A DNA stretch of 64,000 nucleotides from an uncultured Clostridia bacterium. Its GTDB lineage: Bacteria; Bacillota; Clostridia; TANB77; CAG-508. The stretch is from assembly GCA_947632605.1 (NCBI GenBank), contig CANRPX010000001.1, forward strand, positions 198,416 to 262,415, read 5' to 3'. This document shows, piece by piece, positions 2 through 5,056 of this stretch; positions within the stretch are counted from its first letter, which is position 1; each line of letters opens with the position of its first letter. A program made the position numbers and the translations under genes. The notes below the pieces were generated by a model that was not told where the DNA came from, made no database searches, and saw only the letters and a program-made list of their open reading frames with translations.

Positions 2-1162
2 TTGATTAAAGAAAATGTAACAGAAAGATATGTAAAAAGTGGTATAGGATATGACCAGATTTCAGAAATAGTAAATATGTTAAATCCTAAAGCTCTTACA
101 ATTGGATTTGCTAGAAGATTTGCAACATATAAAAGAGCAACATTAATTTTTAAAGATATAGCTAGATTAACACAAATTTTAAATGATGATAAACGTCCTG
201 TTCAATTAGTATTTGCAGGTAAAGCACATCCAGCAGATAAAGAAGGACAAGATTTAATTAAATATATTCATGAAATATCTTTAATGCCACAATTTAAAGG
301 AAAGATATTCGTATTAGAAAATTATAATATTGGAATTTCTAGATATTTAGTAAGTGGTGTAGATGTATGGCTTAATAATCCAAGAAGACCAATGGAAGCT
401 TCAGGAACATCTGGTGAAAAAGCAGCAGTAAACGGAGTAATAAACTTCAGCGTTTTAGATGGTTGGTGGTGTGAAGGCTACACAGGCACAAATGGATGGA
501 CTATTGGAACAAATGCTAATTATGATTCTTATGAAGAACAAGATAAAGCTGATAGCAATAGTTTATATCATACTTTAGAAAACAGAATAATACCAACATA
601 TTATAATCAAGATAGTAATGGTGTTTCAAAAAATTGGGTTGCATATATGAAAAATTCTATAAAAACTAATGCTGGAAAATATAGTACAGCAAGAATGGTT
701 GCAGAATATGTAGATAGACTATATATGCCATTATGTAATTTAAGAAAAGATCATTTTGAAAATTTATCAGAAGTAGCAGAATTTACTCAGTGGAAGAAAA
801 GTGCAAGAGAAAATTGGGATAGAATAAGACTTGTTCAAGACAGAAATGTTGATAATGCTAAATTAGTTGCTGGAACAAAAATAAATGTAAGTTGTGAAGT
901 ATATTTACCAAATATAGATGAATCAAATGCAGATGTACAAGTATATTTCGGACAATTTTTAGAAAATGGAACTGTTAGAAATGTATATACAGAAACTATG
1001 CATAAAATTTCTGAAAATAGAGAAAGAAATACTTGCATATATGAAGCAGTTTTAGATTTGAAAACAGGTGGTAATTTTGGATATACATTTAGAGTTATGC
1101 CAAAACATCCAATGTTATTAGATTCAGAAAATTTAAATTTAGTTAAATGGATAACAAAATAA
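2..1162 (+). CDS. glgP: alpha-glucan (glycogen/maltodextrin) phosphorylase, C-terminal fragment (5' end lies outside the window)
   Basis: The ORF runs in from the window edge. Motifs QLVFAGKAHPADKEGQ, GVDVWLNNPRRPMEASGTSGEKAAVNG and LDGWW are typical of the alpha-glucan family phosphorylases. Confidence 0.7.
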   Translation: MIKENVTERYVKSGIGYDQISEIVNMLNPKALTIGFARRFATYKRATLIFKDIARLTQILNDDKRPVQLVFAGKAHPADKEGQDLIKYIHEISLMPQFKGKIFVLENYNIGISRYLVSGVDVWLNNPRRPMEASGTSGEKAAVNGVINFSVLDGWWCEGYTGTNGWTIGTNANYDSYEEQDKADSNSLYHTLENRIIPTYYNQDSNGVSKNWVAYMKNSIKTNAGKYSTARMVAEYVDRLYMPLCNLRKDHFENLSEVAEFTQWKKSARENWDRIRLVQDRNVDNAKLVAGTKINVSCEVYLPNIDESNADVQVYFGQFLENGTVRNVYTETMHKISENRERNTCIYEAVLDLKTGGNFGYTFRVMPKHPMLLDSENLNLVKWITK

Positions 1163-1193
1163 TAATTAATTATAAAAAAGAAAGCTTAAAAGT

Positions 1194-1231
1194 AAAAAGA
1201 TATATTTTATTATAAAATATATCTTTTTTTT
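1194..1231 (+). terminator. Rho-independent terminator after glgP
   Basis: Hairpin AAAAGATATATTTTA-ttat-TAAAATATATCTT followed by a T8 run. Confidence 0.7.
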
Positions 1232-1283
1232 ATAATTAATATAAAGCTTAAAATAAAAAATTTAAAAAATTTTTAAAAAACAC

Positions 1284-1312
1284 TTTACAAACAAAAATTA
1301 TGGTGCTATAAT
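1284..1312 (+). promoter_or_regulatory. sigma-A type promoter (TTTACA-17-TGcTATAAT, extended -10)
   Basis: Near-consensus -35 at 1284-1289 and extended -10 TGnTATAAT at 1304-1312. It sits about 350 nt upstream of the first secreted-protein gene. Confidence 0.5.
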
Positions 1313-1665
1313 CTCACACAAGTTAAATATTTTTAACTGCATTTATATTCTTAAAAATAGTAAATACTGTTCTAGTATTTATGAATTTCCAGATTATAAA
1401 ATTAAATATATTAAATTAAATTTTTGTTATGCCCCAAATCAATCACTTAATAGAACTTTTTTCTATTATTTTATTTGCTATACTTTGAACTTACTTAAAA
1501 ATTAAGTAAAATCCAAATTCAAAGATAGTTCATTTAATTTAAAATTCAGATTAATTGTTTATTTATGCCCCTAAATAATTATAAATGAGATTTGCAGATT
1601 AAAAATATTTAACTTTAATTTTTTAAAAAAGGAGGTTAAAAATTAATAGAATTATTAGAATTTGT

Positions 1666-2205
1666 TTGTTTATTAGTATAATTTTAATAGCATTTTGCAT
1701 TGGATTTTTTTCAGAAAAAATAAATATTAAAAATGATGAATTAGTAACTAATATTGCTAAATGGTCTTTTAACTCAAGTAACACTGAAAAAATGATTAAT
1801 ATATCTAATGAAAAAATATTTCCTGGTTCAAAAGGAGAATTTGAAATAGAATTAGATGCAACAGGTGCGGAAACAGATATTGAATATAAGATATTAGTTT
1901 TAGAAGAAAAAAATATACCAAGTAATTTTGAATTTTATGCAGAGACTATAAATTCTAAAGGAGAAATAATTGATAAAACAGATAAATATCAGCATTTTTC
2001 CGAATTAGCAAATAATAAATTGTTTGGAAGTATAGCTTTTGATAAGAATAATCAAACAAGAAAGATAAAAGTTTACTGGTTTTGGAAAGATGAAAATGTT
2101 GATGATTTATTAAATATCAAAGATGGAACTTTAGTTTTTAATGAAAACAATGAAAGTTCTTTAGATTGCAATTTAAAAATTGAAATTATAGGTAAACAGA
2201 TATAA
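1666..2205 (+). CDS. TasA/camelysin (peptidase M73)-family secreted protein; SipW-cognate type N-terminus
   Basis: Signal peptide, then INISNEKIFPGSKGEFEIEL (compare TasA/CalY ...NLSNLKPGD...FxFxN), KIKVYWFWKDEN (CalY KVKFLWNWDKQ) and a C-terminal SLDCNLKIEI block (CalY SLNLEWTF). The ORF starts at TTG 1666, but an in-frame ATT at 1642 lies 7 nt after GGAGG (1631-1635) and would give MNRIIRICLF..., a classic n-region plus h-region. Confidence 0.55.
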   Translation: MFISIILIAFCIGFFSEKINIKNDELVTNIAKWSFNSSNTEKMINISNEKIFPGSKGEFEIELDATGAETDIEYKILVLEEKNIPSNFEFYAETINSKGEIIDKTDKYQHFSELANNKLFGSIAFDKNNQTRKIKVYWFWKDENVDDLLNIKDGTLVFNENNESSLDCNLKIEIIGKQI

Positions 2206-2414
2206 TTTTAAATAATTTTGCACAAAAGAAAATTAATTACCTTTTTATTAAATAAATTTTTTACGAAAGAATTCATAATTAAAATCTTATAAACTTTATA
2301 TATTTTTAAGGTGGCATTTTTAAAGCCGAATGCCACTTTAAATTTTTTATTAAGAATAGTAATTATTATTATTTTTAATAAAGAATTTTAAAAATGTATA
2401 TTCGTTTATTTTAA

Positions 2415-2903
2415 TTGGAGGTGAAATTTAAAATAAAGAAAAAAGAAATAATTTTATTAATCTTGTTAATATTAATTCCGATAAAAGTTTCAGCAGGATA
2501 TTACGAAAAAATAGAAAATATAAAACTTTACTTCTTTATTGCAAAACCTATTTTAGTGATAGAAAAACAACAAAGCGAAATTGTAAAAAATGTTTATCAA
2601 AAAGAAAAAATAAAAGAATTTTATTTTACTATTAGAAATTATGAAGTAAATAATAATGTAAAAGAAATTTCAGAAGTTCCATTTTTTATTGATATGAAAA
2701 TAGAAAATTCAAATCAAAATTTTCCAATTGAATATAAAATATATGATTGTGAAAATAATGAAGAAATAACTGAGGATAAAAAAATATTTATAGATAAAAA
2801 TATTGAGTTTTTAAAAAAATATAAAGTTATAACTAGTTGGAAAAGTGATGCTAAAAATAGTTATAATGAAACAAACATTATTTTTAATATAGAACAAGCT
2901 TAA
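2415..2903 (+). CDS. secreted hypothetical protein (signal peptide ...IKVSAGYY), a possible companion matrix protein
   Basis: N-terminal hydrophobic signal with an AG/Y cleavage-like site. Lys/Glu/Asn-rich. No recognisable catalytic motif. Confidence 0.4.
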   Translation: MEVKFKIKKKEIILLILLILIPIKVSAGYYEKIENIKLYFFIAKPILVIEKQQSEIVKNVYQKEKIKEFYFTIRNYEVNNNVKEISEVPFFIDMKIENSNQNFPIEYKIYDCENNEEITEDKKIFIDKNIEFLKKYKVITSWKSDAKNSYNETNIIFNIEQA

Positions 2904-2924
2904 AAAGAGTAGTTAGAGGTTAAA

Positions 2925-3131
2925 ATGAAAAAAATATTTTTAATTAAAATTGTAATTGTTTTCTTATTATTTGTTATGATTTTTATAAGTAGTTTTAAAT
3001 TAGGAAAGAAATTTTATTTTTTAAAAAATACTTTACAGAATAATATGAAAGTAAATGCTAAAGCAACAATTATGAGATGGAATTTTAATGTAAAATTTAT
3101 AGTAGGAAAAGAGGTATTTGAGATTGAATAA
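2925..3131 (+). CDS. small membrane protein (one N-terminal TM)
   Basis: 68 aa, MKKIFLIKIVIVFLLFVMIFISSF hydrophobic helix. Overlaps the next ORF by 14 nt, which suggests operon-style coupling. Confidence 0.3.
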   Translation: MKKIFLIKIVIVFLLFVMIFISSFKLGKKFYFLKNTLQNNMKVNAKATIMRWNFNVKFIVGKEVFEIE

Positions 3132-3330
3132 AATAATATATAAAATTGTTTTTATTTTAATATTTGTAATTCTTTTTTTTACTATCAATGTATATGCTAA
3201 ATATAAATTAACATATAAATTACCAATATATAAAATTCAAATTAAAGAAAATGAACAAATAGATGATTCATTAGTAGTTTTAAAAGAAAATAATATGGAA
3301 AACAGACCTATTATAGAAATTCATAGATAA
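3118..3330 (+). CDS. small membrane protein (one N-terminal TM)
   Basis: 70 aa, IVFILIFVILFFTINVYA signal/TM. Tightly packed with the upstream ORFs. Confidence 0.3.
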   Translation: MRLNKIIYKIVFILIFVILFFTINVYAKYKLTYKLPIYKIQIKENEQIDDSLVVLKENNMENRPIIEIHR

Positions 3331-3410
3331 ATTATAATTATTAATTTAAACTTGTGAAAAAAACATATAAATGATATAATACTTTAGAAATTATATATGA
3401 GGAGAATTAG

Positions 3411-4268
3411 ATGTTATTTTCACAGCATAAAATGAAAACTTATGCTTTTGTTGGACCATCTGGTACAGGAAAGAGTTATAGGGCACAGATGGTAGCAAAT
3501 GAAAGAGGAATAAATTATATAATAGATGATGGACTTTTAATATCTGGAAATGAAATACTAGCTGGAATCTCTGCTAAAAAAGCACCAACAAAAATTGAAA
3601 CAGTAAGAAATGCATTATTTCAAAATGAAGAAAGAAAAAAGGAAATTCAAGAAGTAATTAGAAAAAGAAAACCAGATAGCATTTTAATATTAGGAACTTC
3701 TGATGAAATGGTTAAAAAAATTGTAGAAAACTTAGGATTTGAACCAATAACAGAAACTATATATATAACAGATGTAGCAACAGAAGAAGAAATGGCAATG
3801 GCGAGAGATATAAGAGTTCATCAAGGAAAACATGTTATTCCAGTTCCAACATTTGCTTTAAAAAAAGATTTTTCTGGTTATTTATTAGATCCACTTCAAA
3901 TTTTCAAATCTAAAGGAAGAGGGAAGGAACCTTATATATCAGAAAAATCTATTATAAGACCAACATTTAGTTATATGGGAAATTTTAAAATTTCTGATAC
4001 AGTTTTTAAACAAATAATGGATTGTGTGGCTCAAAAACAAGAAGGAGTACATAAAATTTATAGAGCAATTATAAAAAAACATGAAGAATTAAATGATGGT
4101 ATATATATTTATATAGAAGTAATTATTAATTATGGTTATAATGTTAATGATACTATGCAAGAATTAAAAAGAAGAATTATAAAAGAAATAGAAAAAATGA
4201 CAGCTATGAATGTTCTTAATATGGAAATTGTAGTTAAAGGTGTAAATTTAGAAAAGAAAAGCAAATAG
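3411..4268 (+). CDS. P-loop NTPase fused to a C-terminal Asp23/Gls24 (alkaline-shock protein, DUF322)-like domain
   Basis: Walker A GPSGTGKS at residues 15-22. C-terminal DGIYIYIEVIINYGYNVNDTMQELKRRIIKEIEKMTAMNVLNMEIVVKGVNL matches the Asp23 family signature (the ...VxYGxNI...V.V.V. pattern). RBS GAGGAG lies upstream. Confidence 0.5.
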   Translation: MLFSQHKMKTYAFVGPSGTGKSYRAQMVANERGINYIIDDGLLISGNEILAGISAKKAPTKIETVRNALFQNEERKKEIQEVIRKRKPDSILILGTSDEMVKKIVENLGFEPITETIYITDVATEEEMAMARDIRVHQGKHVIPVPTFALKKDFSGYLLDPLQIFKSKGRGKEPYISEKSIIRPTFSYMGNFKISDTVFKQIMDCVAQKQEGVHKIYRAIIKKHEELNDGIYIYIEVIINYGYNVNDTMQELKRRIIKEIEKMTAMNVLNMEIVVKGVNLEKKSK

Positions 4269-4998: not shown

Positions 4999-5056
4999 AA
5001 ATGTAAAATTAAATATTGTTTGATAATATATCTTATTAATAAAGTTAGGGGTAAAT

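Follow-up and report, generated by a model that had tools for sequence, protein, structure and literature searches.

What does a cluster of four small open reading frames (ORFs) encode when none of its products matches an annotated protein family, and what is the role of the long conserved leader in front of it? The question is raised by positions 1284-3330 of a 64,000-nucleotide (nt) stretch of DNA, the window, taken from contig CANRPX010000001.1 of an uncultured Clostridia bacterium. The original prediction, made from the letters alone, described a TasA-like biofilm-matrix module behind a leader with a repeated motif; the sequence features that it listed are present where it placed them and are non-random. 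With the addition of relatives, structural models and RNA folding, the cluster is probably a four-gene module for surface or matrix fibres of the TasA/BsaA kind, built from a very divergent and unannotated protein family and placed behind a conserved structured leader. Throughout, L-numbers (L001, L004, L069, etc.) are labels of related lineages or contigs that were compared with the window. The genes are as follows.

1642-2205, + strand: ORF1, 187 amino acids (aa) from AUU, the putative major fibre subunit.
1666-2205, + strand: alternative start of ORF1, TTG, 179 aa.
2433-2903, + strand: ORF2, 156 aa from ATA, with a predicted signal peptide ending in VSA↓GYY.
2415-2903, + strand: alternative start of ORF2, TTG, 162 aa; a further candidate is GTG 2421.
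2925-3131, + strand: ORF3, 68 aa, a predicted membrane anchor plus the strand motif IMRWNFNVKF.
3118-3330, + strand: ORF4, 70 aa (68 aa from TTG 3124), overlapping ORF3 by 14 nt.

The TasA-like working claim is supported by a fold match and by the gene order of relatives, in which a SipW-type signal peptidase is part of the cluster. ORF1 consists of an N-terminal membrane helix, a low-confidence linker that carries an AKWSF strand, and a TasA-like beta-sandwich. The AlphaFold2 model of ORF1, generated from a 67-sequence alignment, has a predicted local distance difference test (pLDDT) score of 84.8, mostly above 90 for residues 61-187 and of low confidence for residues 21-60. A Foldseek search of the Protein Data Bank (PDB) with this model returned the cryo-EM TasA fibre 8aur_A first (E 7.7e-5, probability 1.0), followed by the donor-strand pilins FimG (probability 0.99), FimA and PapE, the Sulfolobus thread 7pnb (0.99) and the TasA monomers 5of1/5of2. 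On the basis of the model, ORF1 is predicted to have a TasA-like fold. Close relatives of ORF1 number 10 among 5.8 billion clustered proteins, and a profile of ORF1 with these 10 finds 676 cluster representatives of ∼190-200 aa; none of the 10 family clusters that were looked up carries a name.

Several results count against this assignment. Pfam and NCBIfam scans of ORF1-4 gave no match, and the TasA family PF12389 was not recovered at E<=1 for ORF1 or ORF2, nor at E<=0.01 for any of 67 ORF1-family members taken singly. PDB sequence searches with two ORF1 profiles returned no TasA chain, with spurious stathmin matches or nothing in its place. Profile-profile alignment (hhalign) of the ORF1 family with a 32-sequence PF12389 alignment covers 31 signal-peptide columns only, at a probability of 29%, and sets the family's 'G.TfAKY' against the 'GGGTWAAF' of TasA; ORF2 aligns with TasA at a probability of 0.8%. 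The AlphaFold model of ORF2 (4-sequence alignment) has a pLDDT of 64 and no significant fold match. The template modelling scores (TM-scores) of the 8aur_A match are modest at 0.42/0.35, and beta-sandwiches are common. No sipW gene, nor any trace of one, is detected by tblastn within the 64-kb window, and the cleavage motif of ORF1 is degenerate there, which renders secretion and polymerisation in the window's clade uncertain.

These results bear directly on the original prediction. The TasA/CalY signature blocks that it saw in ORF1 are undetectable by any sequence profile, and the hidden Markov model search against the peptidase M73/TasA family, set beforehand as the test, found no significant match for ORF1, ORF2 or 67 relatives. 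Judged by sequence, ORF1 is not a member of the TasA/camelysin family. The part of the claim that stands is a TasA-like module recognised by fold (8AUR) and by sipW synteny in relatives, whereas membership at the level of sequence falls. In published work the TasA/BsaA superfamily is conserved in structure and highly divergent in sequence, and its paralogues share operons with signal peptidases (PMC11580942; PMC7395162; PMC9674648; PMC10151520); 632 of 2,172 superfamily members fall in IPR022121 (PMC11580942; PMC7395162).

The same results feed a doubtful but substantial alternative, in which the proteins are not fibre subunits but small anchored or secreted beta-sandwich proteins, such as adhesins or envelope proteins, and the TasA likeness is that of generic immunoglobulin-like (Ig-like) or jelly-roll domains. 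The lack of a sequence-level TasA link and the TM-scores of ∼0.4 are what this alternative would lead one to expect, as is the window-clade ORF1 having neither a credible cleavage site nor a dedicated peptidase, and a weak start codon would be odd for an abundant structural protein. It fits poorly with the TasA fibre being the single best PDB match, with most of the next ten being donor-strand pilins, and with a SipW-type peptidase embedded in orthologous clusters. Moreover, the N-terminal strand of ORF1 recurs in ORF3, as a strand-complementation system would need, and the low-confidence N-terminal segment of ORF1 resembles the free donor strands of TasA/BsaA (PMC11580942). The C-termini of ORF1-4 (...IIGKQI, ...NIEQA, ...VFEIE and ...IEIHR) lack an LPXTG-type sorting signal, and no sortase is encoded in the cluster; a sortase gene does adjoin one distant family member (L023). 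A class III, type IV pilin-like signal peptide (G↓FTLxE) is not seen at the N-termini of ORF1-4, as read from the sequence.

Gene order provides the second line of evidence. An intact SipW-type peptidase gene lies between ORF1 and ORF2 in L004 and L069, scoring 66.7 and 80.9 bits, respectively, against TIGR02228 (cut-off 51.85), the archaeal/endoplasmic reticulum-type signal peptidase I family that includes SipW. It was the sole match in a Pfam and NCBIfam scan of the L004 cluster proteins. The L069 cluster and that of the window share a chromosomal locus, with the Asp23-fusion, cmk and plsC genes following in both, which indicates that the order leader-ORF1-sipW-ORF2-ORF3-ORF4 is ancestral and that sipW was lost in the window's clade. 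The original prediction rightly noted that no SipW gene adjoins the cluster; the absence is secondary. A frameshifted sipW is present at the same place in L019 and L145. In these contigs (L019:2082-2631 and L145:5809-6290, also L146 and L147) a +1 frameshift divides the gene at one shared codon, where EYK(I/V) is followed by C-GGA-GAT (GDIVTY) in two diverged lineages; both halves, of ∼75 and 120 codons, are open and conserved in an A/T-rich genome. This may mean that the frameshift is programmed, that the enzyme is split, or that the gene became a pseudogene very recently.

The loss of the peptidase is accompanied by other changes. The motif TFA↓(K/R)Y is kept where sipW is intact, and at the ORF1 cleavage position the window's clade has FFS-EK, YFL-EK or IFE-KS, the window's own ORF1 reading GFFSEK. 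An AxA-type site is retained in ORF2 (VSA↓GYY) and in ORF4 (VYA↓KYK). The NCBIfam model for the SipW-cognate signal peptide is matched by neither ORF1-4 nor the L004 proteins. Peptidase loss, loss of the ORF1 cleavage motif and a near-cognate start co-occur while the genes remain constrained. In the window's clade ORF1 may be left anchored in the membrane, or a different peptidase may process it.

The near-cognate start is itself well supported by comparison with relatives, as the original prediction had proposed for ATT 1642. This codon is in frame downstream of the ribosome-binding site GGAGG (1631-1635). Across lineages, GGAGGT is followed after 5-9 nt by ATT (the window, L017, L018) or ATA (L001-3), and other relatives start ORF1 with TTG (L005) or ATG (L004, L019), 5-6 nt past the site. 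The N-terminus encoded from ATT/ATA aligns with that of relatives starting at ATG or TTG, and L001 and L003 reach a canonical in-frame start only past the membrane helix. AUU/AUA stays at the same ORF1 position across lineages with only ∼50% protein identity. Within the window, ORF1 (ATT 1642) and ORF2 (ATA 2433) are the only genes whose closest start candidate to the ribosome-binding site is a non-canonical codon; ATG, GTG or TTG serves in nearly all the others for which such a site can be detected. For ORF2, TTG 2415 and GTG 2421 fall within the ribosome-binding site TGGAGGTG, and ATA 2433, 9 nt past it, opens a classic signal peptide, (M)KKKEIILL…VSA↓GYY, where relatives have ATG.

A history of decay would connect these features differently. 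Under this explanation the module is deteriorating after the loss of sipW, and the non-canonical starts and degenerate cleavage site are early pseudogenisation. The absence of sipW in the window's clade, its frameshift in L019 and L145, and the coincidence of ATT/ATA starts and FA↓KY loss with sipW loss can all be cited in its favour. It is nevertheless very improbable. ORF1-4 are intact in every lineage, and the ratios of nonsynonymous to synonymous divergence (dN/dS) range over 0.11-0.49 for ORF1, 0.15-0.39 for ORF2, 0.20-0.53 for ORF3 and 0.25-0.68 for ORF4; in the L001/L002 pair, at a synonymous divergence (dS) of ∼0.3, the values for ORF1-4 are 0.11, 0.15, 0.20 and 0.25. ORF1-4 are under purifying selection. 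The leader and ribosome-binding site are strongly conserved as well, and the persistence of AUU/AUA across lineages with half of the protein sequence changed does not fit decay.

The three smaller genes are related to ORF1 in ways that suggest a modular system. The ORF2 and ORF1 families align by hhalign over 146 columns (probability 94.7%, E 6e-8), and on this comparison ORF2 is a remote paralogue of ORF1. ORF3 aligns with the ORF1 family at a probability of 94% (E 1.4e-7), its IARWNFxVKI set against VAKWSFxxN, and consists of a membrane anchor and a copy of the N-terminal AKWxF strand of ORF1. ORF4 comprises a signal peptide (...VYA↓KYKLTYKLPIYKIQI), an acidic linker and a C-terminal strand, IIEIHR; hhalign matches its signal peptide and YAKY motif to the ORF1 and ORF2 families with a probability of 81-84%. 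Long forms of ORF4, of ∼390-440 aa, exist in L004, L006 and L145.

Two further arrangements of these genes were observed. In L018:2622-3200, ORF3 and ORF4 form one fused 192-aa frame. A distant Clostridium sp. (L006:1982-6425) carries ORF1 as two paralogues, along with a homologue of ORF2 and an ORF4-like protein of 444 aa, after which comes a 264-aa protein with a pilin-like hydrophobic N-terminus and no NCBIfam match. Secretion of BsaC needs type IV pili (PMC11580942).

In TasA and BsaA, the N-terminal strand of a subunit completes the sheet of the next subunit, and TapA primes the fibre by strand complementation (PMC9674648, PMC10151520, PMC11580942). By analogy, ORF1 would be the major subunit and would polymerise by donor-strand exchange via its N-terminal strand, while ORF3 would donate the same strand from the membrane and so prime or anchor the fibre, much as TapA or PapH does, with ORF2 and ORF4 as minor subunits.

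The second part of the question concerns the sequence between the promoter and ORF1, the features of which are listed here.

1284-1312, + strand: predicted sigma-A-type promoter, -35 TTTACA (1284-1289), 17-nt spacer with TG at 1304-1305, -10 TATAAT (1307-1312).
1320-1341, + strand: 5' arm of leader helix P1, AAGUUAAAUAUUUUUAA plus CUGCA, partner 1593-1615.
1360-1382, + strand: leader hairpin P2, conserved loop core UUCU, with the conserved UUUCCAGAU next at 1386-1394.
1423-1438, + strand: C-rich hairpin 1, carrying motif copy 1, TTATGCCCCAAAT (1427-1439).
1448-1468, + strand: leader hairpin P3, UAAUAGAA / UUCUAUUA, seen in the window fold.
1477-1529, + strand: leader domain P4, CUUUGAA / UUCAAAG, enclosing the inner hairpin P4i (1491-1509).
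1552-1581, + strand: C-rich hairpin 2, loop UUUAUGCCCC holding motif copy 2 (1563-1576).
1593-1615, + strand: 3' arm of P1, UGCAG, bulged A 1598, then UUAAAAAUAUUUAACUU.
1615-1639, + strand: U-tract (1615-1624) in tentative, weak pairing with the GGAGG region.

The near-consensus extended -10 promoter named by the original prediction scores 11/12 plus the TG. TGnTATAAT followed by the initial transcribed sequence CAAGTTAAAT is kept in 11/11 lineages examined, including L004, in which the gene upstream differs and the promoter is kept nonetheless. Transcription is predicted to start at ∼1319/1320, and the leader runs from there to 1641; the claim of a long leader from a far-upstream promoter was right, with the length corrected from 350 to 322 nt. 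The intergenic sequence from promoter to ribosome-binding site is conserved in 11 lineages. Its divergence is well below that of neighbouring synonymous sites: 4.7% vs 26% between L001 and L002, and 22% vs 55% between the window and L001.

This conserved sequence folds. The window leader has a folding energy of -63.5 kcal/mol vs -42.2 ± 4.6 for shuffled sequences (z = -4.7). Across a 10-sequence alignment, the whole structure has 80.9% of cells paired vs 38-51% when the partners are slid, and a covariation score of 0.150 vs 0.04-0.06, a value reached by 0/500 shuffles. Two facts temper these figures: the alignment samples 10 distinct leader sequences, all A/U-rich, and the structure tested was that of the window's own fold, so the counts lean in its favour. 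The outermost element, P1, is a 22-bp helix that contains a perfect 17-nt inverted repeat (1320-1336 / 1599-1615) missed by the original prediction; perfect 17-nt inverted repeats are seen twice in the window, where 0.04 are expected. P1 has a duplex free energy of -21 to -30 kcal/mol in 10/10 lineages and 92% of cells paired, with compensatory change in 4 pairs, and its 3' arm stops 15 nt short of the ribosome-binding site. Variation is nearly absent from the outer 17 bp (L017 has one compensatory A-U to G-C change there), and the inner extension varies by lineage with complementarity kept: CUGCA/UGCAG, CUGCU/AGCAG, CUACA/UGUAG, ACGAUAU/AUAU-CGU and ACGGAGA/UCUC-CGU.

Inside P1, RNAalifold recovered P2, P4 and P4i. 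P2 has 88% of cells paired and 3 pairs with compensatory change, and its stems in L069 and L004 are very unlike the others around an unchanged loop. In P4, 88% of cells are paired, with compensatory change in 4 pairs; in P4i the figures are 92% and 6/8 pairs. P3 is poorly supported across lineages (62% of cells paired). The U-tract UUAAUUUUUU can form G-U pairs with AGGAGGUUAA, much like a fourU thermometer; both the minimum-free-energy and the centroid fold contain this pairing, but across lineages only 67% of its cells are paired, mostly as G-U. Within the good helices, non-Watson-Crick cells are G-U/U-G in 30 cases and A-C/C-A in 3, an excess that favours selection on the sense-strand RNA. 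The leader is a closed domain with covarying hairpins P2, P4 and P4i, and is a well-supported candidate for a conserved, previously undescribed structured regulatory RNA. Rfam 15 covariance models found nothing relevant at E<=10 in 1100-3500, and over the entire 64 kb no family reached its gathering score. The leader is found once per locus, only alongside this ORF1 subfamily; there is no second copy in the window, nor any upstream of the distant family members L006, L022-24 and L148-149. A scan of metagenomes with a degenerate leader pattern gave >120 matches, mostly chance, and L069 alone was real on an nhmmer check.

Inverted repeats at the ends of a leader can also be read at the level of DNA. 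The leader would then be a phase-variable invertible switch, with the 22-bp repeats as recombinase sites flanking a 250-260-bp segment between promoter and gene, and the matching changes in the two arms would reflect homogenisation by recombination rather than RNA pairing. The repeats do lie between a promoter and a surface-structure operon, enclose a segment of similar size and are perfect over 17 nt, and P1 covariation alone cannot separate the switch from the RNA. C. difficile switches of such layout sit in leaders, and their recombinase, RecV, is encoded elsewhere (PMC7446863). Against the switch, no recombinase gene adjoins the leader here, and it is quite improbable: all 32 of 32 contigs, from many samples and ∼11 lineages, have one orientation and are collinear over the full length (assemblies report the majority orientation only and could miss rare inversion), and 0 contigs break at the repeats. 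The internal hairpins P2, P4 and P4i covary independently of the arms, the preference for G-U over A-C mismatches fits sense-strand RNA selection, and the 1-nt bulge of P1 is always in the 3' arm.

The preference for an RNA explanation extends to the repeated motif. The 9-mer TTATGCCCC occurs at 1427-1435 and 1563-1571, in direct orientation and 136 bp apart, and nowhere else on either strand of the 64 kb (2 vs 0.13 expected; 0/100 shuffles gave >=2). CCCC occurs five times on the + strand of the window, TGCCCC at the two leader sites alone, and the complement GGGGCA has 0 occurrences in the window. Copy 1 is TTATGCCCC-AAAT (13 nt) and copy 2 is TTATGCCCCTAAAT (14 nt), the two differing by an indel after the 9-mer. 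The original prediction was right about two copies in the leader; the part they share is the 9-mer, and the longer pattern as it was written fits copy 2 alone.

Copy 2 lies in a hairpin loop in every lineage, with 82-94% of cells paired, and its sequence (…AUGCCCCUAAA) is near-invariant. Copy 1 is in or at a hairpin loop in 6/9 distinct lineages in independent minimum-free-energy folds, with the ACCCC variant of L017 left unscored; in L001/L002 the closed hairpin does not form, and the stem of hairpin 1 is weak (75% of cells paired). Its sequence varies among relatives (TTGCGCCCCAAGCA, TTGCGTCCCAAGCA, TTGCACCCCAAGCA), and its flanks change with a small hairpin (UGC...GCA) preserved, as UGC-GCCCCAA-GCA in several lineages and UUAUG-CCCCAA-CAUAA in L004. 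A first copy that varies yet keeps its hairpin, together with a near-invariant second copy, points to the display of RNA loops and not to a DNA operator. Of the two roles first suggested for the motif, part of a structured RNA agrees with its position in conserved leader loops, and a regulator binding site does not fit, as the sequence of copy 1 is unconserved and its flanks preserve a hairpin. The repeated motif belongs to a candidate new structured leader RNA, whose function we infer. In a naturally truncated leader of ∼120 nt (L145:4860-5003), C-rich hairpin 2 remains, as do the ribosome-binding site and the 3' arm of P1, the latter with a short partner; hairpin 2 is the sole internal element kept, which points to it as the core element. 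The genes upstream of this truncated leader differ and look phage-like.

There is very little chance that TTATGCCCC serves as a DNA operator, with a transcription factor occupying both copies and repressing or activating the promoter from its downstream side. DNA-binding repressors do control matrix operons such as tapA-sipW-tasA, and two exact direct 9-mers unique in 64 kb are what an operator could look like. However, beyond the behaviour of copy 1, L004 has three GCCCC/CCCCC elements with flanks that differ, the sites are 110-250 bp downstream of the start site, and the spacing between copies differs among lineages.

Another, unlikely, explanation takes the domain to be a small RNA that acts in trans: it would be excised at P1, whose 22-bp duplex suits RNase III, and its C-rich loops would pair with the G-rich ribosome-binding sites of other mRNAs; the cut would also leave an ORF1 mRNA with a short leader. 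P1 joins the ends of the domain like a processing stalk, and AGGGG-type ribosome-binding sites are present in the window, e.g. at 5048, 5736, 12179 and 42248. Small RNAs of Firmicutes that act on ribosome-binding sites, such as RsaE/RoxS, furthermore have C-rich loops as their hallmark seed (PMC6158497, PMC5419742). The domain, on the other hand, is always linked to ORF1 and present once per locus, and the exact complement GGGGCA is missing from the window. A trans-acting product would be compatible with action in cis rather than exclusive of it.

The preferred mechanism is that the leader acts in cis and post-transcriptionally, tuning the translation or stability of ORF1. With P1 beginning no more than a base or two from the predicted start site, the 5' end would be buried, and the effect could be either a more stable mRNA or a target for RNase III. 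P1 would also place the C-rich loops beside the ribosome-binding site, where they could pair with GGAGG if its A is bulged (about -5 to -10 kcal/mol); in combination with the weak start codon, this would hold translation of ORF1 at a low or conditional level. The specific loop-to-ribosome-binding-site model is put forward tentatively, with the balance somewhat against it; the pairing needs a bulge, and its conservation follows simply from the invariance of both the C-loop and the ribosome-binding site.

Two other functions were considered for parts of the leader. ATGCCCC opens frames of 7 and 19 aa, and these were rejected as leader peptides, having no ribosome-binding site and being unconserved (relatives: TTGCGCCCC). 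A candidate internal promoter, TTGAAC-N16-TAAAAT (1485-1512), overlaps helix P4, and its hexamers are kept in several lineages; a second, shorter transcript from it is possible. The candidate was set aside, as it leaves the covarying spacer hairpin and the conserved 3' arm unexplained.

Transcription of the cluster has a further candidate control point between ORF1 and ORF2.

2305-2352, + strand: predicted intrinsic terminator/attenuator, stem GGUGGCAU / AUGCCACU (2305-2342), then a U-run.

This terminator, which the original prediction missed, is the sole terminator-like site in 1100-3500. Its hairpin is conserved and covaries, GUGGCAU/AUGCCAC becoming GUGGUAU/AUACCAC in L017. In the proposed module, a terminator after ORF1 would keep the major subunit in excess. 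The surrounding spacer (2206-2414) is conserved, with 4-22% divergence, and contains the blocks TACCTTTTTA and AATCTTATAAACTTTATATATT, the hairpin and then TAAGRRT; its positions 2280-2309 are 77% identical to 1307-1336, which include the promoter, start site and P1 5' region. In some lineages the 5' arm of the hairpin, GGUGGCAU, is complementary to the leader loops AUGCCCC, and a long-range antitermination contact between the two is conceivable. Pairing of the C-loop with this arm, at -10 to -17 kcal/mol in the window, L003, L005 and L019, was not retained as an explanation, being absent from L004 and L069.

The surroundings of the cluster are those of a low-G+C genome (∼24% in the window). 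Of 45 listed ORFs of at least 120 aa in 8000-64000, 43 are on the + strand, and the GC skew is positive throughout. The nearest relatives of the window are metagenome-assembled genomes labelled 'uncultured Clostridia bacterium' from rabbit and other gut metagenomes. On the 5' side, the cluster is flanked by a GlgP-like phosphorylase gene (2-1162) with its own terminator hairpin, composed entirely of A/T, at 1194-1228. On the 3' side lies a gene (3411-4268) for a 285-aa fusion of an N-terminal P-loop NTPase domain and a C-terminal Asp23-family domain, followed by cmk, plsC and typA. The fusion gene is 3' of the cluster in nearly all relatives, directly before cmk and plsC, and may or may not be linked to the fibre genes.

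TasA/BsaA-type fibres form one of the main protein scaffolds of Gram-positive biofilms. Sequence profiles miss most of their diversity, and the ORF1 family, with ∼676 cluster representatives and no Pfam model, extends it to uncultured, very low-G+C gut Clostridia. The family amounts to a naturally dissected system, with a subunit, a paralogue, a strand-only anchor, and clusters with or without SipW, which could serve to study the priming and anchoring of donor-strand fibres. The conserved AUU/AUA start is among few cases outside infC of a near-cognate start apparently kept by selection. A bolder combination of these elements is possible but on the doubtful side: the leader as a new class of cis-regulatory RNA with a near-cognate start, and the cluster as a minimal SipW-less TasA-like fibre. 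The clamped multi-hairpin domain would then show GCCCC loops beside the ribosome-binding site and gate translation of the fibre subunit according to a signal such as a protein, an RNA, the temperature or the level of IF3, and the 68-aa ORF3, little beyond a donor strand, would prime or anchor polymerisation, a dedicated SipW being dispensable.

Among known systems, the leader invites two comparisons. With the C. difficile cwpV/flgB switches (RecV) it shares ∼20-bp inverted repeats, a 150-300-bp segment and a position between promoter and surface operon (PMC7446863); it differs in its one orientation in 32 assemblies and in the internal covariation and G-U bias that point to RNA. With the C-rich-loop RNAs RsaE/RoxS and RNAIII it shares unpaired C-rich loops in an A/U-rich RNA that may pair with G-rich ribosome-binding sites (PMC6158497, PMC5419742). 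In contrast to those RNAs, the loops here are within the 322-nt leader of the mRNA itself, closed by a long-range helix, with no Rfam match.

For the proteins, the recurrent ORF1 fold matches include archaeal TasA-like filaments (Sulfolobus threads 7PNB; bundling pili AbpA) and FimA/FimG/PapE. Archaeal threads, AbpA and chaperone-usher pilins are built from incomplete Ig-like subunits that are completed by the N-terminal donor strand of a neighbour. They differ from the window's proteins in having no sequence relation to them, in the absence of a chaperone or usher here and, for the usher pilins, in envelope architecture. The C. perfringens sipW-bsaA-bsaB-bsaC operon ('exchange and lock' BsaA fibres) is closer, being from Clostridia, with a subunit of ∼20 kDa and two remote TasA-like paralogues with SipW in one operon; there, too, TasA homology is found only by structure or iterated profiles (PMC11580942, PMC7395162), and BsaA oligomers are membrane-associated, which fits an anchor such as ORF3. 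Unlike that operon, the major subunit comes first here and sipW second, and the window cluster has neither a vWA protein (BsaC) nor a two-component system. The 67-sequence ORF1-family alignment has no invariant or near-invariant N, E or K, its invariant positions being P61, G62 and G65; with no invariant Asn/Glu/Lys triad (the BsaA sequence itself was not aligned), the isopeptide lock is not predicted for the ORF1 family.

The B. subtilis tapA-sipW-tasA operon (TasA PF12389/IPR022121; 8AUR) differs from the window in several respects: ORF1 has no detectable homology to PF12389 and is 187 aa long vs 261 aa, the window's clade is without sipW and has a decayed ORF1 cleavage motif, two mini-proteins of ∼70 aa stand in place of the 253-aa TapA, and the window module has a long structured leader and a non-AUG start. 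The likeness lies in the organisation of the system. In both, the major subunit is a beta-sandwich, with 8AUR as the best match of ORF1, and in the ORF1 family it carries an N-terminal signal peptide with a G-x-T-x-A motif; a SipW-type peptidase is inside the operon, in the case of the window among its relatives; and an accessory protein has a strand related to the N-terminus of the major subunit, ORF3 here and TapA there (PMC10151520). The original interpretation is thus partly supported: the cluster resembles a TasA/BsaA system in fold, in synteny and in the logic of its modules, as distinct from being a sequence-level member of the peptidase M73/TasA family.

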